Assembly: GCA_038063895.1 (NCBI GenBank) | Contig: JBBTUG010000012.1 | Location: forward strand, 14,165-78,164 | DNA length: 64,000 nucleotides | Direction of reading: 5' to 3' | Origin: Patescibacteria group bacterium | Lineage (GTDB): Bacteria > Patescibacteriota > WWE3 > JAMCXX01 > JBBTUG01 | Made by a program: the position numbers and the translations under genes | In this document: piece after piece, positions 14,128-56,429 of the stretch | Position numbering within the stretch: position 1 is the stretch's first letter | Layout: the number at the start of each line of letters is the position of its first letter | The notes under the pieces: generated by a model | The model's input: the letters and a program-made list of their open reading frames with translations, nothing else | Databases searched by the model: none | What the model was told of the DNA's origin: nothing

Positions 14128-16307
14128 ATAAACGGGTAATTCTAATCATTGCGAAAAAAGAACTGCTGGGGTTTATTAACAGTCCCCTGGCCTACACAGC
14201 CGTTGTGCCGTTCCTCCTTTTATCCGTGTTTCTTTATACCCGCTCTTTGCTTATCTCGGGAGAGGCGACCCTCCGTCCCTTTTTCGACCTGCTGCCTTGG
14301 TTTTTGCTCCTGCTCGCCCCCGCCCTGTCAATGAAGGCCCTCTCGGACGAATACCGGAATAATACGTTGGAACTTCTCTTCGCGCACCCCCTTTCGGAAA
14401 CTGAGATCGTCCTCGGAAAATTTTTCGGGGTCGCCGGCTTTTATTTACTGGTTCTTTTAACCACCGCCGGTTTGCCATTGACGCTGTTCGCTTATTCGAG
14501 GCCCGACCCGGGCCAGATCGTTGCTCAATACCTCGGGGCTTTCCTGCTCGGCAGTTTGTTTATCAGCGTCGGCCTTGCGGCGTCCGCTTACGTTAAAAAC
14601 GCCATCAGCAGTTTCTTGCTGTCCGCCTCAGTCAGCTTCGTCTTACTGATCCTCGGCTTGGACTTTATCGTAATGACGCTACCCGCCCCTTTCAGTTGGC
14701 TGGCCACGCAAATTTCCGTCCTGACCCACACGGATAATATCGCTCGGGGCCTTTTAGACATTCGGGATGCTGCCTATTTTGCCACCATCACCGGCCTTTT
14801 TCTTGCTATGGCCGTGATGAAACTTTCGTCCCGCCGGCTGGTGGAAAGCCCACTGGAAAAACGGAAGTTAAATCTGGCGCTGGCAATAATCATCGGCATC
14901 GGGCTGATGAGTAATCTGCTTTTAACTGCCTACCCGCTCCGCGTGGATCTGACCGCCAACCGGCTGTTTTCCATTTCCGCCGGAACCCGGCAGACCCTGA
15001 GAACTTTGCCGGATGTCGTCACCGTCACCGTCTTCGCCTCTAAGGATTTGCCCGCGCAGACGCAATTAACGGAACGGGAGATTACGGATTTGTTGAAAGA
15101 CTACGCTCGAATCGGCCGTAACCTTAAAGTCGTTAAAGTTCATCCGGAAGAAAATTCGGAAACGGCGACGGAGGCGCGGAACAGTGGCATCCAGGAAATT
15201 ACCTTTAATAAAATCGGCACCGGAAAGTTCGAAGCTCAAACCGGCTTTCTGGGTCTCTCCCTCCGCTTCGGCGATAAAACCGAAAGCATCCCTTATATTT
15301 CCGATACCTCTGACTTGGAATACCAGCTTACCCGGCGCATCCGGAAACTAACCGGTGACAAAGATAAAATAATCGGACTATTAAGCAGCGGGGACGGCGC
15401 CCAAAACCAGCTCCTCAATCAGATCTTAAGCTACCAGTACCGGACCGAAACCTTAAGCGACGGAGATTACGGAAAGTTGAAGGATATTGCGGCTTTAATT
15501 GTAATTGATGACGGGAGCCGGCAGAGCACCGCCTCGGCTCTGATTAAAACTTATCTGCAACAAAACGGGCACGCTTTAATTCTCGCTAGTGGAGTAACAG
15601 TTAATCAGCAAAATCTCACCGCAAGCAAAAGCCTATCAAGCGTACCGGAAGCGCTGAAGGAATTCGGAATAACTATTAACAACGACATTGCGTATGATTT
15701 ACAACTGAATGAGTTACTGACCTTCGGTAGCGGCAACAGCCGTTTTCTCGCTCCTTACCCGTATTGGTTAAAGGCAGTCCCGACAGAAGCCGTCTTTTCG
15801 CCGCTGTCTTCGATCAAAAGTCTGAGCCTCGGTTGGCCCAGTTCCATTACCATTGAGGAAAAGGCCGGCTTTAAATATAAGAAACTTATCGTCACCGGCG
15901 GGGCGGGCGGACGCGTCAGCGAGAATTTCAATCTCTATCCGGAGTCGATCCGGACTCTGGGAACAACCGACGGCGGAAAAGTTTACCTGGCCGGTTTGGT
16001 TGAAAAGGAGGGAATGCGGGCGGTGGTTATCGGAAACAGTTCGATCGCGGAGGACCGCTTTTTGCAAAGTAACCGTGATAACGCGGCCTTTTTAGCCAAT
16101 ACAATTGACTACCTCGCCTCTGACGCGGATCTGGCCGCCATCCCCGCCAAAACCGCCGGACGGGCCATTCTGCAATTCCACTCCCCCAACGACCCGCTTA
16201 TCGTCCAGTACGGCAACCTTCTAGTTCCGCCACTTTTAGTTGTTGCGTTTGCCGTCTGGCATCTGCGTCGGCGCAAGCAAAAAACACTCCGCCTTTATGA
16301 AAAATAA
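14124..16307 (+). CDS. ABC-2 permease fused to GldG-like auxiliary domain
   Basis: The 727-aa product has an N-terminal ~240-aa 6-TM permease, then a large soluble domain typical of GldG-type ABC accessory proteins and a C-terminal TM segment. Its start overlaps the ATPase stop (ATGA). Confidence 0.6.
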   Translation: MNKRVILIIAKKELLGFINSPLAYTAVVPFLLLSVFLYTRSLLISGEATLRPFFDLLPWFLLLLAPALSMKALSDEYRNNTLELLFAHPLSETEIVLGKFFGVAGFYLLVLLTTAGLPLTLFAYSRPDPGQIVAQYLGAFLLGSLFISVGLAASAYVKNAISSFLLSASVSFVLLILGLDFIVMTLPAPFSWLATQISVLTHTDNIARGLLDIRDAAYFATITGLFLAMAVMKLSSRRLVESPLEKRKLNLALAIIIGIGLMSNLLLTAYPLRVDLTANRLFSISAGTRQTLRTLPDVVTVTVFASKDLPAQTQLTEREITDLLKDYARIGRNLKVVKVHPEENSETATEARNSGIQEITFNKIGTGKFEAQTGFLGLSLRFGDKTESIPYISDTSDLEYQLTRRIRKLTGDKDKIIGLLSSGDGAQNQLLNQILSYQYRTETLSDGDYGKLKDIAALIVIDDGSRQSTASALIKTYLQQNGHALILASGVTVNQQNLTASKSLSSVPEALKEFGITINNDIAYDLQLNELLTFGSGNSRFLAPYPYWLKAVPTEAVFSPLSSIKSLSLGWPSSITIEEKAGFKYKKLIVTGGAGGRVSENFNLYPESIRTLGTTDGGKVYLAGLVEKEGMRAVVIGNSSIAEDRFLQSNRDNAAFLANTIDYLASDADLAAIPAKTAGRAILQFHSPNDPLIVQYGNLLVPPLLVVAFAVWHLRRRKQKTLRLYEK

Positions 16308-44067: not shown

Positions 44068-45423
44068 TTAAGAAGGTGTCGGGCCCTCAATAACCGGTCC
44101 GAGGCGGAAATCAATGCGTTCCATATCGCGGGGAAAAAGAGAGGCTTCCCGGACATTGGTCAGATTTAAGAACTGCTTGGTCAGCCGTTCCAGACCGAAA
44201 GAAAACCCCCCCTCCGGAGGCATTCCATATTTAAAAGCCATTAAGTACATTTCATAATTTTTCGGGTCCATTCCGTGCTCGGCAATAGCGGCCACCAGCT
44301 GATTGTAGTCGTTTATCCGTTGCGAACCGCTGAGAATCTCCAAACCTCGGAATAAAAGGTCAAAGCTCAGACTGAATTCGGGCTCCTCGGGATCCGGCCG
44401 GGTATAAAACGCGCGTTTCTTTGTCGGATAGTGGGTCACGGTGACAAAATCGCTTTCATATTTTTGCCTCGCCCAAGAACAGATATCAACCTCGTCCTGC
44501 GGACTTAAATCTTTTTCGCCCCTGACGTCCCGTCCGAACTCTTTGAAAATAATTTCCTGAACTTCGTGCATTTTAAACCGGGGAATTTTCCCGTAAAAGG
44601 CTTTTGGAACTTTAAACATTTCTAAAATGGCGGCATCTTTCGCTTCGACCGCTTTCAGCATCGAGGTTCCGACGGTTTCCAGGTAATCCAAAAGGGTCGT
44701 AAAATCTACGAAGCCGAATTCACAATCCATCTGGGTGGCTTCCGTCAGGTGGCGGGTGGTGACTGACGGCTCCGCCCGGTAGGCTTTCGCGACTGTATAA
44801 ACCCGCTCGAAAACCGGTACCACCATCTGCTTATAAAGCTGGGGGCTCTGGGTTAAAAAGGCTTTGTGGCCGAAATAGTCAACGAAAAATACTTCCGCGC
44901 CGCCCTCAGTGGCCGAGGCCGAAATTGTCGGCACAACAACTTCGGTGCACTCCAATTGTTGAGCGGCCTTTCTAAACGCATCTAAGATTGTCTCTTGGAC
45001 TTTAAAAATCGGCGCGACGGAAGCGTGGCGGAGAGTCAGACAGCGGTGGTCTAGAAGGGTCGGCAGTTCGAGGTTCAGCTCGGCACTACCCATATCAAAA
45101 GGCAAACTTTCGGCAACCGTTAAGATCTTTACCATTTCCGCTTTGACTTCAACCTTACCGGTCGGTAGGTTAGAGTTGACGGCTTTCGCTCAGCGCTCCA
45201 CAACGATGCCGGTAATCTCCACAGCATACTCCGCCCGCAGTTCCTCAACTTCCGGTTGTTTCGAGAGCGGATCGGTAAAAACTGCCTGAATGATTCCGGA
45301 CCGATCCCGTAAATCGATAAAAACAATTTTTCCGTGGTCGCGCCGCCGGTTAACCCAGCCGTTAAGCCTTACTTTCTCACCGATTTTTGTTGTTGCCGCT
45401 GCAGCTAAAGTCCTTTCCATCAT
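44068..45423 (-). CDS. asparagine/aspartate--tRNA ligase (AsnRS / archaeal-type AspRS family) interrupted by an in-frame TGA at 45190-45192
   Basis: An N-terminal OB anticodon-binding domain (45423-45193) and a class II catalytic core (45135-44068, motif 3 [15 protein letters not shown]) lie in the same frame. They are separated only by TGA plus 18 codons ([18 protein letters not shown]). Confidence 0.7.
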
Positions 45424-45464
45424 AAAAACACTAACAGATCCCTCGTCGCTGACTCCTCGGGATT

Positions 45465-45488
45465 AACCTGCCTGCCGGCAGGCAGGTT
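45465..45488. repeat. perfect 24-bp palindrome AACCTGCCTGCCGGCAGGCAGGTT in the aaRS leader
   Basis: The sequence is read directly. Confidence 0.7.
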
Positions 45489-45548
45489 CGGCTACCGTCC
45501 CGCTACGGCGGGGCGAGCCTCATTGAATATGCTATAATAATAAGTGAG

Positions 45549-45567
45549 CCCCTGAAAGGGGTTTTTT
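45549..45567. terminator. short GC hairpin (CCCCU-GAA-AGGGG) with T6 on plus and A/T-rich flank on minus; bidirectional terminator-like
   Basis: The element lies 20 nt downstream of the minus-strand gene ending at 45587. Confidence 0.45.
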
Positions 45568-45586
45568 ATTTACGGAATGAGTTTGG

Positions 45587-47683
45587 CTATCGCACAGCGG
45601 GCGTGCACATCTCTCCATCTGCAACAATACCATTAATATTGCTCTGAGCGGCACTTTTGAGGCACCGTAACATAGGATAATAAGAAGATAGCCACTCGTC
45701 GGGAGTAGAATCGGTCAGAAGATAATCGTAGAATAAAGTGAGATTTCGGTACACGTTTGGGAAGCGTGAGTTTGACTTAACGAGATCGCTACCCTCCCAG
45801 CGCCATACGTCTTTCCAGATTGTCCAGGAACGGGGCCCGGAACCGGTGGCATCCAGAGAGTAGGAGTAAATAATTTCTTTTATTCCGTCATCATTTAGGT
45901 CAGTCAATTGGGCGTGGCTGACTCCATTTATAAGTTTAAGCAATAATTTAAAGGATTCATTTTCCTGTGTATATAGATAAAAGGGATGAAACAGTCCCGT
46001 TCCGGAGACGAGATACTCAACCGCCACCTCCTTTTTTTGGTCACCGTTAAAATCTCCAACTTCCACCCATTGAACGTACTCCCCAGGTCCCTTAACTTCT
46101 CCACCAACCTCTTTTATTTCGTTATCTTCTAAAAAGTATTTAATCCTCCCCGAGTTATCAATAACGCTTAAACCTACGGCAGAATAAGGCACGTGTTTAA
46201 CGAAAGCGAGACGGTTTTCGCTATCCAATCTAGCGGTCTCGTTGATCTCATAAGCGGGGGCGGCTTTTGTAGATTCGCTAAGTACCAGTTCCGCCGTTTG
46301 TTTCACGTTGCTACCCTTAAAACTACCTCTCATGGCGGCCGATAAAATAGGAAAGGCTGAAAATATAGCGAGGAGTAATAAGAGAGACCAAAGTTTATAT
46401 CCGCTGGAGTCGGCACCATCCCGATAAACTTTGTAAACCTTTCTCTGGTAATCAGAATCGCCGCCGCCGTTGTAATCAGCGACGGCCTGTTCCCAAGACT
46501 TCCAAAATCTACCCCCGTTTTCCTTTATTCCCTGAGCTTTATGATAGAGCCAACGGACGCCCCAGCGAAGGCTCTCAACCGGCTCGTCGACCTTCGCATC
46601 TTTATATTCTAATACCGTTGTTTGACCATTAACCCACTCAAACTCCCTGGCGATTTTACCGGTATTCGGATCCGTCCAACCGTCATTTTTTAGCGTATGA
46701 ATCGCGGGGTTATTCTTATCCGCCACCTGCAGTACATCCGGGTAGGCCGGCTGTCCGGTTGGCGAAGTGCCAAAGCCCAGGCGACTTTCGATATAGGCAA
46801 CCGCTTTAATCAGATTGGGGTCCAGGGGAAGGGGCGGCGGATCCTCTTGGTCAAGGAACTGTCGATTCCAATTATTGACCACTTCAAAAATTTCACCGTC
46901 AAAACGGTTGTAATTTTCGCCTCGGACACCATTCTTGTATTGCTTGATAATTTTACTATCGGAAGTCTTTAATTCTAATCCCAGAGAGTTGATTGTCGGC
47001 GACTCGTCCGCCCAAAACTCCAGGTAATGAAGTCCTCCCGGGGAAAGGGCCTCACTAAATGTCTTCTCGGCGTTCCCCTTCCCGAAAAGAGTCTTTAAAA
47101 CACTTGAAGCAAAAATCCAGTTCTTGTGGAGGAGAGATAAATTGTTCTTTTTAATCTCGCCATCGACCACAACTTTTAAGTCATCACCATCGGGAAACCG
47201 CCATTTAAATGAGGCGCTGACTTTAAACGAAACTAAACCGACGTCGACCAAAACCACCGTAAGCCAGGGACGGGCTCCCGCCTTTTCCGCTGTTTCATTG
47301 AGATCAATAATTAAATTAGGAAAAGATTCGATTCTCTTTATTTCGGCTATTTCGACAAAGGCGCTATGATCAGGAATAAAGGAAAGGGTGTGAGCTCCTT
47401 CCTCGAGGAAAAGCACAAAAGAGATGGTCTGACGAGCGTTGTGCAGTTTCCCACCGGAAAAAGCGGCCGGAGAATCAAAAAAACGTTGGGGATTTTTCAG
47501 CTGAGGAAACGGTCTTTGATCTATCTTAAGCCGTAAATCTTCATCATCAGTTTCGTTTTGACCACGCTGTTTTTCACTTTTAACCCGGGCCGAAACGGAA
47601 AGGAGGTACCAGCCGGACGCGGTAATATTAAACCCCACGACAAAGATCTCATCTAATCTGACCGATTTTAGAGGCAGACTCAC
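45587..47683 (-). CDS. large hypothetical protein with SLT-like lytic transglycosylase core and central TM helix
   Basis: The 698-aa product contains AVAYIESRLGFG ... AVADYNGGGDSDYQRKV (ES catalytic and AYNaG-like motifs) and a TM segment (LWSLLLLLAIFSAFPILSAA), with ~240-aa flanking domains. Confidence 0.45.
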   Translation of the reverse strand: MSLPLKSVRLDEIFVVGFNITASGWYLLSVSARVKSEKQRGQNETDDEDLRLKIDQRPFPQLKNPQRFFDSPAAFSGGKLHNARQTISFVLFLEEGAHTLSFIPDHSAFVEIAEIKRIESFPNLIIDLNETAEKAGARPWLTVVLVDVGLVSFKVSASFKWRFPDGDDLKVVVDGEIKKNNLSLLHKNWIFASSVLKTLFGKGNAEKTFSEALSPGGLHYLEFWADESPTINSLGLELKTSDSKIIKQYKNGVRGENYNRFDGEIFEVVNNWNRQFLDQEDPPPLPLDPNLIKAVAYIESRLGFGTSPTGQPAYPDVLQVADKNNPAIHTLKNDGWTDPNTGKIAREFEWVNGQTTVLEYKDAKVDEPVESLRWGVRWLYHKAQGIKENGGRFWKSWEQAVADYNGGGDSDYQRKVYKVYRDGADSSGYKLWSLLLLLAIFSAFPILSAAMRGSFKGSNVKQTAELVLSESTKAAPAYEINETARLDSENRLAFVKHVPYSAVGLSVIDNSGRIKYFLEDNEIKEVGGEVKGPGEYVQWVEVGDFNGDQKKEVAVEYLVSGTGLFHPFYLYTQENESFKLLLKLINGVSHAQLTDLNDDGIKEIIYSYSLDATGSGPRSWTIWKDVWRWEGSDLVKSNSRFPNVYRNLTLFYDYLLTDSTPDEWLSSYYPMLRCLKSAAQSNINGIVADGEMCTPAVR

Positions 47684-47754: not shown

Positions 47755-48201
47755 TTATTTTTGGCGTAACTTTTCCAATAAACCTGTTAGCTCCGTGACT
47801 GAAGAAATAATAAAATCGGGTTTTACGGTGCCTTCCGAAGGAATAGTTTTTTCCGCCTGAATCCAAACCGTTTTCATTCCCAACCCTTGCCCGACGGTGA
47901 TCTCCTCACTTAGCCGGTCACCAACAACAAATATATCTTCCGGTAACAGACAGAACTTTTCCTTAAATTCATTAAATACCGCCGGGGTCTTCTCCGGAAC
48001 AACCCGCACCCAATGGAGGAAGCTCATTAACCCCAAACTTTGGAGTAAACGTTGTTTTTCCTCACTGCCGAAACTGACTAAACCCAACTTGATCCCCTGC
48101 TTGTTGTAAGCCTCGAGAAAAGACAAAACTCCGGGAAAAAGCCGGCCCTCACCGGGATCATACAACGTCCGCACGAAATCAAAGATAATCCCCTTGATCA
48201 T
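47755..48201 (-). CDS. HAD-like hydrolase
   Basis: The product starts IIFDFVRTLYD (motif I-like) and has VVGD..., a motif IV-like element. Confidence 0.5.
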   Translation of the reverse strand: MIKGIIFDFVRTLYDPGEGRLFPGVLSFLEAYNKQGIKLGLVSFGSEEKQRLLQSLGLMSFLHWVRVVPEKTPAVFNEFKEKFCLLPEDIFVVGDRLSEEITVGQGLGMKTVWIQAEKTIPSEGTVKPDFIISSVTELTGLLEKLRQK

Positions 48202-48257
48202 AATGATCTATTATAACCTTTCCTTTGAGGCTTTTGGTCTAATTAAGTATACTTCTA

Positions 48258-48308
48258 GAGGGAAGCGGAGGGTGAAGTCTAAATCCCCCTTTCCGCTTCC
48301 CTCTTTTT
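48258..48308. terminator. 12-bp stem hairpin (GAGGGAAGCGGA ... TCCGCTTCCCTC) followed by T5 on the plus strand
   Basis: The element lies between two minus-strand genes. Its orientation of function is unclear. Confidence 0.35.
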
Positions 48309-48326
48309 GTCCCTCTCACTGATACT

Positions 48327-49577
48327 TCATTTCTTCTTCCTGACAATAACCGGCATCGCAACAGCATCAGACGAGCCGTGAACCAAGGGACGGTCAAGCA
48401 AAGTGGCGTCGATATCAGCCACCTCAACGCTATCTCCTTCAACCAGATAAACCACACACAAACGGACGCGGTAGCCGTCCGCCTCAACCAGCCCCTCTCC
48501 GGCCTCGTTCAGAAAAACCACTTTATGCTCCAATGTCGGCACCTCCGGCTGGATAACGTAAAGAGGTCCGTCTCCGTTAGCGACTGGGAAAAGAGCTCCC
48601 AGTAACCTGTTTCTCCACTCAATAGCGGTCAGTTGCGAACTGAAGGCAATACCCTTTCCCTGACCACCATTACAACGTTTAAGCACCCATTGGAGCGTTT
48701 CTTTGCCGGAGTTGTCTAAACGTCTGCCCATAAATTCTTCGGCTCCCCAAGAATAACCCCGACCCTTAAAAGGGATCTTGACTTCGGGAACGACGGGAAA
48801 TGTCCAGGGAATAAACCCCTTCAGACTTTGCCGGTCGCTACTACTCAAAGCGAAAGACCGCCCGGAAGCCGTCTCCGGATTATGAACGGCAACCATCCAG
48901 GAATTATCCTCAAGCCGAGTAAATGGCGGCCAGATATCCAGCTTTCCGCCTGATAACAGTTCGCCAAGGCGTTGCCCACCGGGAAACACTTTTGCAGACT
49001 GCGGCTGCAACCAGGCGAGAGTGAAAGTGCGGTAGACCACGTCCCCTTCAAGCAGACTTTCCCCGGTTTCCGAAACTTCACAACAAAGACCGAAGCTCTG
49101 GAGGTACCGCGCCAGAAGACGGTACTCTGCCCCGTAACCGAGACGGTCGGGACTAAGGAGAATCACCAGGCGGCGCCCGCTGAATTTTTTCAGTAAGAGC
49201 CCGGCAATTGTCTTCGCTGCGCCTGGAAAAGGATCAAAGGAACCTTCCGGCAGGCCCACGGAACGGTAGTAAGTTTCCCGAACCAGTTGGGTGGCCAAAT
49301 CCCAGACTGGGGTTCCGTTGAGTTCAAACAGGACAAGATAGCCCCGGCGATCTAATGTAAAATCGGCCCGGAGATAAGTAGCCTCGTCGCTAGAATCGAC
49401 AGCAGCGCGCAACTTCGGTAACAGCTGTCCCAAGGCCAGCGCCTGCTGCCACTGCTGTTCCCAAAGGTAATACCATTTCGGAGAAACCCGCCAAAGCCTA
49501 GGCGGATTACCATAAGCGAAACCGTAATGCCAAAGTGCCCGGCGGATCTCGTCAGCCGTCCTAATAATCTCTTCCAT
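48327..49577 (-). CDS. glutathionylspermidine-synthetase-family (YgiC/YjfC-like) ATP-grasp amide ligase, putative
   Basis: The start MEEIIRTADEIRRALWHYGFAYG... and the RADFTLDRRGYLVLFELNGTPV segment resemble the GSP_synth pre-ATP-grasp/ATP-grasp pattern. Codon usage is GC-rich. SD AGGAGAAGG lies 4 nt before the ATG. Confidence 0.5.
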   Translation of the reverse strand: MEEIIRTADEIRRALWHYGFAYGNPPRLWRVSPKWYYLWEQQWQQALALGQLLPKLRAAVDSSDEATYLRADFTLDRRGYLVLFELNGTPVWDLATQLVRETYYRSVGLPEGSFDPFPGAAKTIAGLLLKKFSGRRLVILLSPDRLGYGAEYRLLARYLQSFGLCCEVSETGESLLEGDVVYRTFTLAWLQPQSAKVFPGGQRLGELLSGGKLDIWPPFTRLEDNSWMVAVHNPETASGRSFALSSSDRQSLKGFIPWTFPVVPEVKIPFKGRGYSWGAEEFMGRRLDNSGKETLQWVLKRCNGGQGKGIAFSSQLTAIEWRNRLLGALFPVANGDGPLYVIQPEVPTLEHKVVFLNEAGEGLVEADGYRVRLCVVYLVEGDSVEVADIDATLLDRPLVHGSSDAVAMPVIVRKKK

Positions 49578-49599
49578 TGCCTTCTCCTTTCCTGAACAA

Positions 49600-49925
49600 A
49601 GTTTTGTAGTTGGGATAAAAAAATCCCGTCCGCTACCTACTTGTAGTTTTACAAATAAGTAAGGGACGGGATTCAAAAAAAGAATACCGCGGTACCACCC
49701 TGATTCCCTTCGGCTAAGCCTCGGGGCACTCATTAGACTTTTTGGGCCGGGAAGTCATTCCCGCTTGCCTTACTCTTTATTCAGGCTCGCTGTTTTCCGC
49801 CAAGTTTAACTTGGCATCGCAAGACGCGTTCGGATTTCCTTAGACTACCAGGCTTTCAGCTGTCCCGGCTTGCTTTAGTCTCTAGAAACCCTACTAATTC
49901 TTGCCTACAGGCATATTTTGAAGTA
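49600..49925 (-). promoter_or_regulatory. T-box riboswitch leader (Stem I, T-box sequence, terminator)
   Basis: The minus strand reads AATCAGGGTGGTACCGCGG (49705-49687). A terminator GAAUCCCGUCC...GGACGGGAUU plus U7 lies at 49673-49617. A TTGACG-N17-TATGAT promoter lies near 49954-49926. Stem I is GCAAGA/UCUUGC, then a 7x7 internal loop, then GGGUUUC/GAAAUCC, AGACUA/UAGUCU, CCGGG/CCUGG. Confidence 0.7.
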
Positions 49926-49979
49926 CGGTCTGAGCCTATCATAACCTCGCCCTCCGCGTCAAATATTTTAACACTCTTA

Positions 49980-50264
49980 CTAACGGTAGAGTTGGCTATG
50001 GGTGCCAAGGGCTTCGAAAATAATTACCTTCCCGCCTTCCTGCTCCAAATAAATCGTCCGCCAGTCACCAGTAATATTAAGGCTCCGAAGGCCTTTAAGT
50101 TTTCCTTGTAAGAGATGGTTACCAAGCTTTGGGTCACGGGGATTCAGAAGGAACAACTTAAACCGTTCTCGAAAAGCAATTTTAATTTCCAGCGGAGCTT
50201 TTCCTAGTTGCTTATTAAAAACCTTTGAAAAATCAACTCTGAGTTTTTTTCCGTTCATTGGCAA
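49980..50264 (-). CDS. RelE/ParE-family toxin
   Basis: The product reads LKGLRSLNITGDWRTIYLEQEGGKVIIFEALGTHSQLY (RelE/YafQ-like C-terminus). Confidence 0.65.
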   Translation of the reverse strand: MPMNGKKLRVDFSKVFNKQLGKAPLEIKIAFRERFKLFLLNPRDPKLGNHLLQGKLKGLRSLNITGDWRTIYLEQEGGKVIIFEALGTHSQLYR

Positions 50265-50541
50265 TCATGTCATCCAAATACCCTAAGACCGCGTTCCCAC
50301 CATTAAAAGAAATAACCCGCCCCGCCTTAATATCTCTACGGGATTCTGCTAACATTTGTAAAAGATACTCGGTCGGTTCCTCGTCGGAAGCACTAAAAGT
50401 AACGGTCTTCGTCCGGATGACCTGCTTTAAGTAAGCGTTTATTAAACCGCTTAAACTCAAGCCTAAGTCATCCGCAAGCTTTCGCGCACGGATTTTCACT
50501 TGAGGTTCGGTTTTGATGTTAATAATGGCCGTTTGGTTCAT
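50233..50541 (-). CDS. RelB/DinJ-family antitoxin
   Basis: The N-terminus is RHH-like (INIKTEPQVKIRARKLADDLGLSLSGLINAYLKQVI). The gene overlaps the toxin gene by 32 nt. Confidence 0.6.
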   Translation of the reverse strand: MNQTAIINIKTEPQVKIRARKLADDLGLSLSGLINAYLKQVIRTKTVTFSASDEEPTEYLLQMLAESRRDIKAGRVISFNGGNAVLGYLDDMIANERKKTQS

Positions 50542-54912: not shown

Positions 54913-55116
54913 TGGTAAACCTATGTTTTAGGTTAGCAGATAAGAGTTGTTCCGGTCAATCTAGCAGTCTCTATTAAACATGGTGATCAAAAACTAACAG
55001 ATAATACCTAATGGTGCTCGTTTTTGGAAAAATCCGAACGCATTTCAAATCAATGTGTTAGCTTGCCGGGATTCCGTTCTTTTTCGCGTGCAATTTTATC
55101 GTCCTTTGGGCAAAGG

Positions 55117-55971
55117 CTATTCTCCTATAAGTCTGTACTCTTTTGAATAGAAATGTAAGACTTCCCCTTGCCCAACAAATGCCTCTTCCCCTTTGATAGA
55201 TTTTCCTGTTCTATCAAGAATATTATTTATGACGGTTGCGTTGCCCTGACCGATTCCGAATGGGTCGCTAACATGAACACCATAATTAATTTTCATATCA
55301 AAGTCGCCTGGTGCCATAGCCATATATTCCATCGCTCCCACCCCACCCACTATTTTCTTACCCCAATCTCCAAAAGAAAAGCTGATTTCATGAGATTTAT
55401 TTTTCTCTATTTTATAAAATGAATCAAAATTAAACTCAAAAGTCTTGCCATCAAAAGTGACGTTTGTTGGATCAAACCCAAAAGTAAAGTCATCTCCCTG
55501 TATGTCTTTTCCCCTGAATCCAACATGGAGAAATATATTCATGTCAGATGTTATGTTCGAAACAAAACGAACTTTAAAAATGATTTTTTCTAAATTTTGT
55601 GAATTATTAAGTATTGGTATTTCTTCAAAATCTGTGATAGTTATTTGAGCCTGTTTAGACTGTTGTATCGCTTGGTTTAGCTCGTTTGATAAACTTTGAG
55701 AAAATTTATTTGTCTGATAACGATTTATCATAATAATAGTGGTATTAGTTAGAACCATGACAAATACCGCCACAGCAACATATTTCCACTCCTTAAACGT
55801 GATTTTAGTTATCGCCGAGACAAATAGGTAAATTAGGGCCAGGACTGGGATAACAGCAAAAGATTCTGCGTAACCAGGGAAAAAATTAACCTGTTGAAAA
55901 AAGGGAAGCTTGGCAATCAATAAAATAATCGGGGTTTGTAAAAAAAATATAACCGAGAACGAGAATATCAC
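55117..55971 (-). CDS. hypothetical membrane/secreted protein in an AT-rich islet
   Basis: The 284-aa product has N-terminal TM helices and low GC relative to its neighbours. Confidence 0.4.
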   Translation of the reverse strand: MIFSFSVIFFLQTPIILLIAKLPFFQQVNFFPGYAESFAVIPVLALIYLFVSAITKITFKEWKYVAVAVFVMVLTNTTIIMINRYQTNKFSQSLSNELNQAIQQSKQAQITITDFEEIPILNNSQNLEKIIFKVRFVSNITSDMNIFLHVGFRGKDIQGDDFTFGFDPTNVTFDGKTFEFNFDSFYKIEKNKSHEISFSFGDWGKKIVGGVGAMEYMAMAPGDFDMKINYGVHVSDPFGIGQGNATVINNILDRTGKSIKGEEAFVGQGEVLHFYSKEYRLIGE

Positions 55972-56354
55972 AACGATGAGAAAATAAATAAATCTTATCT
56001 TTATTATAATTTCCTTCTTGTTGATTTAATAATCTAACAATTATTATAGCACTTTTCTTTGGTGTCAACAAATAACAAACTTTTGTTTTTTCTTAAACTT
56101 TGTATAGCGTAATTGTACTCAAACGATATTTCGGATTTTTAATGCCCACTTTGGACAGATCCGAAAGGGTTTGACTTCAACAAGGTGCTCATCTAAATTA
56201 ATAAAAAGTTCTTTAATTTTTGCGTTTTTCTTTGGAACAACGCTCTATGAGAAATTGCTTGTTAGAGCCGACTTTTTTGGGAACGCGGCGAGTGAGGAGG
56301 GGCACCGCGCAACAGTTGGTAGTGCCGCACCTAACGATTTCGCAATTTCCCAAA

Positions 56355-56429
56355 TGGTGCCGCCACGGGGAATCGAACCCCGGTTACCGGATTGAGAATC
56401 CGACGTCCTAACCCCTAGACGATGGCGGC
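56355..56429 (-). tRNA. tRNA-Glu (anticodon CUC)
   Basis: The minus strand reads GCCGCCA-UC-GUCU-AGGGGUUA-GGAC-G-UCGGA-UUCUCAA-UCCGG-UAAC-CGGGG-UUCGAUU-CCCCG-UGGCGGC-A-CCA. It is 75 nt with a 4-nt variable loop, and the acceptor is fully paired. Confidence 0.8.

Follow-up and report, generated by a model that had tools for sequence, protein, structure and literature searches.

A T-box riboswitch, most likely specific for tRNA-Arg, upstream of an orphan ATP-grasp ligase-like gene and its HAD-family partner in a Patescibacteria genome

The contig JBBTUG010000012.1 (assembly GCA_038063895.1) belongs to a Patescibacteria group bacterium of the WWE3 lineage. A stretch of 64,000 nucleotides (nt) of this contig, positions 14,165 to 78,164 of the forward strand, was analysed and is referred to as the window, and all positions without a locus number are given in its own numbering. 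The minus strand of the window carries a complete T-box leader (49617-49910), a gene for a protein of 416 amino acids (aa), hereafter X (48327-49577), and a gene for a 148-aa hydrolase of the HAD superfamily (47755-48201). As delimited by the match to the Rfam model RF00230 and by the fold of the terminator, the leader consists of Stem I, a Stem II region, Stem III, the T-box sequence with its antiterminator and an intrinsic terminator. Judged from its sequence, it is a genuine T-box riboswitch of the class-I transcriptional type (49910-49617), and it probably acts as a functional tRNA-Arg T-box that controls the conserved module of X and the HAD protein.

The model RF00230 matches positions 49659-49910 of the minus strand end to end (model positions 1-219) with a score of 57.9 bits. 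The match is significant both in a local search of 551 nt (E-value 4.5e-12) and in a search of the whole 64-kb window, in which both strands were compared with 4227 families (E-value 5.3e-10). A transcriptional T-box had been proposed in an earlier note, made from the sequence alone, on the basis of the T-box sequence AAUCAGGGUGGUACCGCGG at 49705-49687, and this proposal is confirmed by the full-length match. An all-family Rfam scan by E-value detected no further T-boxes in the window, where the nearby genes for lysyl-tRNA synthetase (LysRS) and aspartyl-tRNA synthetase (AspRS) are not preceded by one, and no T-boxes adjoining LysRS were found in 20 related Patescibacteria genomes. Stem I (49819-49904, minus strand) was delimited by the cmscan alignment and contains a 7x7 specifier internal loop, in which 5' AUUAGUA lies opposite 3' GAACGCG. 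This loop and its S-turn, formed by AGUA opposite GAA, had been drawn before and are found in the sequence as well as in the cmscan alignment; the loop is closed by AAGA/UCUU, and the same layout is repeated in L096, one of the loci that encode homologues of X. In the distal platform of Stem I, the AG-bulge-like AAGCAA aligns to the AGAGA consensus and the distal loop ACAGCUGAAAG aligns to GgUUGGUGaaA. The AG bulge is degenerate in the window, while both the AG bulge and the distal loop are kept in L096.

The 3' half of the leader contains the elements of a transcriptional switch. Within the T-box sequence (49687-49705, minus strand), the segment AGGGUGGUACCGCGG at 49701-49687 is a near-perfect match to the consensus and includes a 7-nt bulge with the UGGN motif; the core is identical in the homologous loci L007, L096 and L097. 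According to the cmscan structure, the antiterminator helix AGGG[UGGUACC]GCGG...CCGUCCCU spans positions 49662-49701 and has a folding energy of -11.2 kcal/mol when folded alone. The intrinsic terminator (49617-49674) consists of a stem at 49674-49621, which is followed by a U7 tract to 49617, and folds with -32.9 kcal/mol. The earlier note had recognized the terminator and its U7 tract, but had assigned it a hairpin of 10 bp, whereas the stem comprises around 24 bp with one mismatch; its stability corresponds to a z-score of -8.5 relative to shuffled sequences and was reached by none of them. The segment CCCGUCCC is common to the antiterminator and the 5' arm of the terminator, and the two folds are thus mutually exclusive. 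A strong terminator overlapping a weak antiterminator is the design expected of a switch in which a tRNA has to hold the antiterminator. Downstream of the terminator, the Shine-Dalgarno sequence AGGAGAAGG (49588-49580) and the ATG (49577-49575; both within 49575-49588) open the 416-codon reading frame, all as previously described, and the encoded N-terminus aligns with those of the homologues.

Upstream of the leader, a promoter-like region was read from the sequence at 49933-49962 (minus strand), with a -35 element TTGACG at 49962-49957. The earlier note had combined this hexamer with TATGAT at 49943-49938 to form a promoter. Both hexamers exist; however, a spacer of just 13 nt is implausible, and a sigma-70 promoter scan yielded nothing on the minus strand. 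An extended -10 element, TGaTAGGCT at 49941-49933, which has a spacer of 18 nt, is a possible alternative. A RelB/YafQ-type toxin-antitoxin pair (49980-50541, minus strand) ends around 20 nt upstream of the promoter region, and read-through from this pair into the T-box leader is possible.

T-box leaders are also found upstream of X in three further lineages. L007, whose X is 85 % identical, carries the 3' half of the same leader, where the contig ends; L096 (X 43 % identical) possesses a full-length T-box (53 bits, E-value 1.5e-09), and a T-box is located at positions 92-290 of L097 (X 29 % identical; 33 bits, E-value 6e-06). Stem I of L097 is ultrashort and comprises a K-turn plus a short hairpin with the 7-nt terminal loop GU-CGC-GA; around 76 Stem I positions of the model are absent, and a T-box sequence and an intrinsic terminator follow. 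The UGGU bulge is present in the T-boxes of all three loci. When Stem I of the window is compared with that of L096, 12 of the 21 base pairs annotated by Rfam are unchanged, six show compensatory changes, two have one-sided substitutions that still allow pairing and one is broken, and substitutions are found at 16 of 42 paired versus 5 of 50 unpaired positions. Relative to the window, L007 carries substitutions that preserve base pairing: a G.U pair of the antiterminator is replaced by A-U, and further ones lie in the terminator, in Stem III and in a hairpin of the Stem II region. The pair-preserving changes in both loci indicate that the T-box RNA is under selection for structure. In L096, and in this lineage only, an open reading frame (ORF) of 142 aa without a Pfam match (1670-2098) follows the T-box terminator and precedes the ligase gene; the L096 leader also has an assembly gap, a stretch of N within the terminator loop.

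The geometry GAA-CGC-G-helix of the internal loop places the specifier CGC at 49828-49826 and the following purine, G, at 49825 (minus strand). CGC-G is also found in the T-boxes of L096 and L097. The T-box database TBDB places the specifier at positions 2-4 of the bulge, counted from its 3' end (PMC7778990), a rule that yields CGC for the T-box of the window, and arginine T-boxes favour specifiers ending in C (PMC7778990). The UGGU bulge (49694-49697) would pair with the tRNA 3' end ACCA and predicts that the cognate tRNA has the discriminator A73. A tRNA-Arg(GCG) with A73-CCA, the Watson-Crick complement of CGC and UGGU, is encoded on the contig of a relative, L006. The earlier note had read CGC followed by a purine as an arginine specifier and had deduced A73 from the bulge; both readings are upheld, and the former is strengthened by the T-boxes of L096 and L097 and by the gene order X-HAD-ArgRS in relatives, which is described below. 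The sensed tRNA is thus most likely tRNA-Arg.

Protein X is a circularly permuted ATP-grasp ligase-like protein of the GspS/eukaryotic glutathione synthetase fold class and a member of an orphan family. Neither Pfam nor NCBIfam assigns it to a family, the sole Pfam line being ATPgrasp_YheCD with an E-value of 0.21. GSP_synth (PF03738) does not match X up to an E-value of 1, and none of 23 members of the X family matches an ATP-grasp or the GSP_synth model at an E-value of 0.01 or below. A comparison of X with YgiC by hhalign reached a probability of only 15 %, and a PDB sequence search with the single protein returned nothing usable; X was placed only by its family profile and by fold search. 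The family profile finds Cp1B by sequence (E-value 1e-07), and X shares 9-17 % identity with the group of GspS, trypanothione synthetase, YgiC/YjfC, Cp1B and glutathione synthetase. The alignment matches its N-terminal RxD...ExN motif (R70-x-D72...E85-x-N87) with the Mg/ATP motif at the C-terminal end of TTL and Ddl and thereby reveals a circular permutation of the ATP-grasp fold, and the region of K300 aligns to the lysine of Cp1B. Across the 23 family members, D72, E85 and K300 do not vary and R70 is conserved almost throughout (at least 90 %), and N87 is invariant among nine close homologues. X resembles GspS, trypanothione synthetase, YgiC/YjfC, Cp1B and the eukaryotic-type glutathione synthetases in its permuted order, in which the K-P/Gly-rich loop comes later, but differs from these enzymes by the lack of an amidase domain and by its obligate HAD partner. 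X can therefore be assigned to the GspS/YgiC-like ATP-grasp proteins by fold class, with an intact catalytic core, but not by sequence family. The same distinction applies to the previous description of X as a glutathionylspermidine-synthetase-like ATP-grasp ligase, which is correct for the fold class and the catalytic motifs, but not for membership in the Pfam family GSP_synth. GspS-type relatives catalyse ATP-dependent carboxylate-amine ligation via an acyl-phosphate (PMC12568646); Cp1B joins epoxysuccinate and an L-amino acid, and YgiC and YjfC are peptide-spermidine ligases (PMC12568646; RefSeq product name).

The X family is small, with 9 proteins among 5.8 billion clusters and 19 representatives among 1.84 billion, and a profile search of the 5.8-billion-protein database with a wide alignment added one protein. 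No relatives of X were found in 185,579 species-representative genomes and no homologues in plasmid and phage collections. The claim that X has a markedly GC-rich codon usage, which had been taken as a sign of acquisition, does not hold: the GC content at third codon positions (GC3) is 0.533 and practically equals the mean of the window, 0.535 (rank 32 of 55; z = -0.03), and the z-score of 1.2 for the total GC content arises from codon positions 1 and 2. Given the average GC3 and the absence of plasmid and phage homologues, horizontal acquisition of X was rejected.

The gene downstream of X (47755-48201, minus strand) encodes a cap-less HAD-superfamily hydrolase, which scores above the cut-offs of the Pfam families HAD_2 (32.8 bits versus a cut-off of 23.8), Hydrolase_like and Hydrolase. 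The core motifs I-IV are present, with D8, S/T43, K71 and GD95xxxEE being conserved. A HAD gene of around 150 codons follows X in every locus that is long enough to show it, including those of homologues with 29-31 % identity, and motif I reads DF[V/N/M]RTL in six of seven aligned homologues, the translation of the seventh, L006, starting after the motif. X and the HAD gene are separated by an intergenic spacer of 125 nt (48202-48326, minus strand; minimum free energy -36.7 kcal/mol), which contains the perfect 13-bp inverted repeat AGAGGGAAGCGGA...UCCGCUUCCCUCU without a U tract and may act in the processing or stability of the mRNA or as an internal promoter. A TATAAT-like box is found 8 nt before the start codon of the HAD gene. 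The two genes are likely co-transcribed in the window.

The gene order X-HAD-ArgRS is found in L005, L006, L009 and L012, which are all four of the loci without a T-box that extend far enough. In the window and in L007, the next downstream gene for an aminoacyl-tRNA synthetase (aaRS) encodes AspRS and not ArgRS, and no ArgRS is encoded elsewhere in the 64-kb window. Gene order thus places the X-HAD pair ancestrally upstream of argS as its companion, and argS has been lost from that position in the window lineage. The earlier note had placed X under T-box control instead of an aaRS; this is true in that X, the first gene, is not an aaRS, but overlooks that the pair ancestrally lies upstream of argS.

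The relatives that lack a T-box possess a different leader, which consists of a promoter with TTGACA and TTTAAT separated by 17 nt, an ORF of 25-30 codons that is apparently leaderless and a terminator CCUCCCGnAAGGGAGG with a U tract. The ORF region was located in six loci (L005 5604-5746; L006 32-160; L009 1894-2022; L011 1-132; L012 415-546; L014 1765-1890). An invariant arginine codon, CGU, is positioned exactly 16 codons before the stop inside a run rich in R, K and H, and the stop always lies 26-29 nt from the terminator. Inside the ORF, the segment GGGAGrYCUUUC forms a helix with GAAAGA...CCUCCC, a stretch that takes in the 5' arm of the terminator. This antiterminator pairing occurs in each of the six sequences, at -15 to -27 kcal/mol, and shows covariation in L009 and L011. 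No Rfam family matches the leader. It resembles the trp, his and leu attenuators with regard to the short ORF, the control codon CGU, the in-ORF pairing with the terminator 5' arm and the fixed distance between stop and terminator; however, it has a single invariant arginine codon within a basic R/K/H run, and its ORF is apparently leaderless. It is therefore a candidate leader-peptide attenuator that may sense the translation of arginine or basic codons. If it senses arginine, X-HAD would be controlled by two unrelated devices that monitor the charging of tRNA-Arg. Neither the short ORF nor the terminator of these relatives, and hence no such attenuator, is found in the window, and the short ORF is also absent from L007, L096 and L097. 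The most distant locus, L099 (31 % identity), has kept the X-HAD pair and possesses a similar terminator and antiterminator.

In one clade, a tRNA-like element separates the terminator of the attenuator from the ligase gene (L005 5878-5954; L015 1463-1538; L014 2160-2234; L006 ~172-272; L008 1-30). It has an acceptor stem with G1xA72 or G1.U72, D and T arms and a conserved A73, and CCA is not encoded. The anticodon arm is not conserved: the element of L006 has the loop GU-CCU-AA, which contains an arginine anticodon, together with a D-loop insertion of around 30 nt, that of L005 a hairpin with a GACG tetraloop and that of L014 the 8-nt loop GUUGACGU. The element may serve as a signal for processing by RNase P, or it may act on ArgRS or the CCA-adding enzyme as a decoy.

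Several observations weigh against a functional tRNA-Arg T-box that controls X-HAD. The RF00230 match is significant by E-value, but its score lies below the Rfam gathering score of 93, and the T-box is for this reason missed at the default threshold of Rfam. The gathering threshold is, however, a curation criterion and no biological feature, and an empty Rfam scan at this threshold was rejected as proof of absence, since the E-value mode gave a full-length match. Stem I lacks the basal K-turn, as the gaUGAa and GGAG positions of the model are deleted in both the window and L096; K-turns are frequent accessory features of T-boxes, but do not define them. The match to anticodon and discriminator rests on the tRNA-Arg of a relative, because the only tRNA genes in the 64-kb window are those for tRNA-Gln and tRNA-Glu. 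The link to argS is ancestral and not present-day in the window lineage, which has AspRS downstream instead. In L099, the short ORF lacks an arginine codon and is unrelated to the ORF of the other loci, so the arginine signal is specific to the closer clades. Motif I of the HAD protein retains the nucleophilic aspartate, but not the Asp+2 general acid/base of phosphatases; HAD-fold hydrolase is thus the proper name for a protein that is not a proven phosphatase, and its chemistry may be atypical, with, for instance, good-leaving-group substrates such as acyl-phosphates. The strong hairpin between the two genes makes their co-transcription uncertain, and an ATP-consuming ligase has no obvious way to raise the arginine supply in an auxotroph. 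Lastly, the tetranucleotide CGCG is common to all three T-boxes with a Stem I (window, L096 and L097), which makes the GCG frame, and with it alanine, conceivable, especially for the terminal loop of L097.

A T-box that senses tRNA-Ala by the specifier GCG, the +1 frame of CGCG, would be compatible with the conservation of this tetranucleotide and with the 7-nt loop GUCGCGA of L097, in which GCG is followed by the purine A beside the helix. tRNA-Ala usually has A73 as well, and the UGGU bulge can therefore not discriminate between the two tRNAs. In the long T-boxes of the window and L096, however, GCG abuts the helix without an unpaired purine and would break the purine rule, and the positions 2-4 rule gives CGC (PMC7778990). 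The synteny is with ArgRS and not with AlaRS, the leader ORF of relatives contains an invariant arginine codon, and a tRNA-Arg(GCG) with A73 exists in a relative; sensing of tRNA-Ala is thus regarded as very unlikely. A second alternative concerns the cargo and not the tRNA: the T-box could have arisen for the control of argS within an X-HAD-argS operon and be a relic that stayed behind when argS left, in which case X-HAD would have no arginine-related function. The position of ArgRS directly downstream of X-HAD in L005, L006, L009 and L012 is in agreement with such a history, as is the fact that the next aaRS in the window and L007, AspRS, does not match the specifier; furthermore, around 8 % of T-boxes precede genes without an evident link to amino acid metabolism (PMC2494555). 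On the other hand, the T-box has remained intact, with pair-preserving substitutions, in two sub-lineages devoid of argS (the window and L007), which argues for continued selection, and X-HAD is always promoter-proximal and has been kept, with overlapping genes, down to 29-31 % identity. In addition, the loci that contain argS use the short-ORF attenuator, and the T-box is thus not demonstrably a T-box of argS. A mere passenger role of X-HAD is therefore considered unlikely.

The short ORF of the relatives also allows for a different interpretation, in which X is a peptide ligase similar to those of ribosomally synthesized and post-translationally modified peptides (RiPPs). The product of the ORF would then be the substrate, and X would join its C-terminal carboxylate to an amine in the manner of the peptide-spermidine ligases YgiC and YjfC; the pathway would include ArgRS and the tRNA-like element, and the T-box would merely tune expression. 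An ORF of 25-30 aa with conserved G(-6) and L(-4) is indeed located just upstream of X in six loci, the closest characterized folds activate carboxylates of peptides or acids (PMC12568646), and the tRNA-like element and ArgRS are found in the same cluster. Yet no ORF of this kind precedes X in the window, L007, L096 or L097, and the ORF of L099 is unrelated. The conserved nucleotides of the ORF are those of the antiterminator and terminator pairings, and its stop keeps a constant distance of 26-29 nt to the terminator, a layout that characterizes attenuators. The C-termini of the peptides vary (SVA, SMA, CFG, SVV, SCT). Induction by uncharged tRNA would moreover be unfitting for a pathway that consumes Arg-tRNA, and a RiPP-like role of X appears highly improbable.

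The leader of the window resembles the class-I transcriptional T-boxes (RF00230; argS of Firmicutes) in the S-turn AGUA/GAA, the specifier followed by a purine, the distal platform, the UGGN bulge, the mutually exclusive antiterminator and terminator and an arginine specifier ending in C (PMC7778990). It differs from them in its host, a member of the Patescibacteria/candidate phyla radiation (CPR), in the absence of the Stem I K-turn, in a score below the gathering cut-off and in its first gene, which encodes, together with the HAD gene, an orphan ATP-grasp ligase module and not an aaRS, a biosynthetic enzyme or a transporter. The T-box of the relative L097 resembles those with an ultrashort Stem I, its putative specifier lying in the terminal 7-nt loop above a K-turn. 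T-boxes of this kind are otherwise known from Actinobacteria (ileS type) as switches that act at the level of translation, whereas L097 has an intrinsic terminator and is thus transcriptional. T-boxes in front of non-synthetase genes are known, for instance for B. subtilis rtpA/yczA, and the function of such genes can be inferred from the specifier (PMC2494555). X-HAD differs from cargo of this type in that the family adjoins the gene of the matching aaRS in other lineages and that these lineages use a different device, which would likewise depend on the status of the ribosome or the tRNA. T-boxes, arginine T-boxes and T-boxes before genes of unknown function (around 8 %; Wels et al. 2008, PMC2494555) are thus already known; new are the cargo, in which a permuted ATP-grasp ligase of an orphan family is paired with an atypical HAD protein, its linkage to argS, its presence in CPR bacteria and the exchange of one sensing device for another at the same operon. 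Full-text literature searches identified no paper that treats Patescibacteria or the candidate phyla radiation together with T-box riboswitches. A paper on an S. aureus ATP-grasp protein was rejected as a link between T-boxes and ATP-grasp ligases, as a T-box paper merely appears among its references.

Further features were observed in the surroundings of the module. Between the HAD gene and the AspRS gene, the window encodes a protein of 698 aa (45587-47683, minus strand), whose sole Pfam signal is a weak match to an FG-GAP repeat; the gene is absent from L007, where AspRS directly follows HAD, and strain variants of 683 aa are found in L002 and L004. The AspRS gene (44068-45423, minus strand) contains an in-frame TGA at 45190-45192, which is GGA (Gly) in the orthologue of L007, and the rest of the gene aligns with that of L007 in one frame at 93 % identity. 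Recoding of UGA as glycine was rejected, since X ends at a genuine TGA stop; the TGA is a nonsense variant, a sign of a pseudogene or an assembly error. The spacer of 163 nt upstream of AspRS (45424-45586, minus strand) is highly structured (minimum free energy -51 kcal/mol) and contains CCCCUUUCAGGGG and the GC-rich 10-bp hairpin AACCUGCCUGCCGGCAGGCAGGUU, without a match to an Rfam family. LysRS of the window shares at most 54-59 % identity with LysRS proteins of Gottesmanbacteria and other metagenome-assembled genomes of Patescibacteria. At 55000-56200, the GC content drops to 0.32-0.37, compared to 0.48 for the window, around an ORF of 284 aa (55117-55971). This trough adjoins the tRNA-Glu(CTC) gene at 56355-56429, and a small foreign insertion at the tRNA gene is possible.

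From the architecture of the RNA, its conservation and covariation, the fold class of X and the synteny, we infer the identity of the tRNA, antitermination, co-transcription of the HAD gene and the biochemical role as follows. During transcription, Stem I would capture tRNA-Arg with the anticodon GCG or ICG via the CGC specifier. If the tRNA is uncharged, its 3' end ACCA would pair with the UGGU bulge, thereby stabilizing the weak antiterminator and blocking the overlapping terminator, and RNA polymerase would continue into X and, very probably, into the HAD gene behind it. Charged tRNA-Arg would fail to stabilize the antiterminator, and transcription would stop at the U7 tract. In different lineages, X-HAD would have been put under the control of tRNA-Arg charging by different devices. 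The induction of the T-box at low charging and the companionship with argS make it more likely that X-HAD supports the Arg-tRNA pool than that it consumes arginine. X-HAD most likely supports the Arg-tRNA(Arg) pool, be it arginine supply and salvage or the function of tRNA-Arg and ArgRS, by an ATP-dependent ligation via an acyl-phosphate; that X is an arginine-conjugating enzyme is a guess. It is tempting to speculate that X-HAD constitutes a new pathway of two enzymes by which CPR bacteria replenish or sustain their pool of Arg-tRNA(Arg), either by ATP-dependent formation of arginine from a scavenged precursor or by an acyl-phosphate step on tRNA-Arg or on the tRNA-like RNA of the relatives' leaders, both of which are possibilities; as a whole, this idea is tentative and rather doubtful. 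If true, it would explain why X-HAD is welded to argS, why its control has been taken over by at least three different leaders that sense tRNA or the ribosome, namely the long T-box, the ultrashort T-box and the leader-peptide attenuator, and why the 5' untranslated region of X contains a tRNA-like element in one clade.

CPR bacteria are generally regarded as amino acid auxotrophs with much unexplained gene content. The T-boxes described here document this type of regulation in Patescibacteria, including transcriptional variants that lack the K-turn or have an ultrashort Stem I, and show that genuine T-boxes of divergent phyla escape detection at the curated Rfam threshold of 93 bits. Nothing established is overturned by these findings. 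As T-box specifiers are a reliable handle for assigning functions to unknown genes, the arginine-type T-box, the synteny with argS and the apparent arginine-codon attenuator together suggest that the orphan X-HAD pair is involved in the biology of arginine or tRNA-Arg, and the short list of arginine-related substrates makes the pair directly testable.

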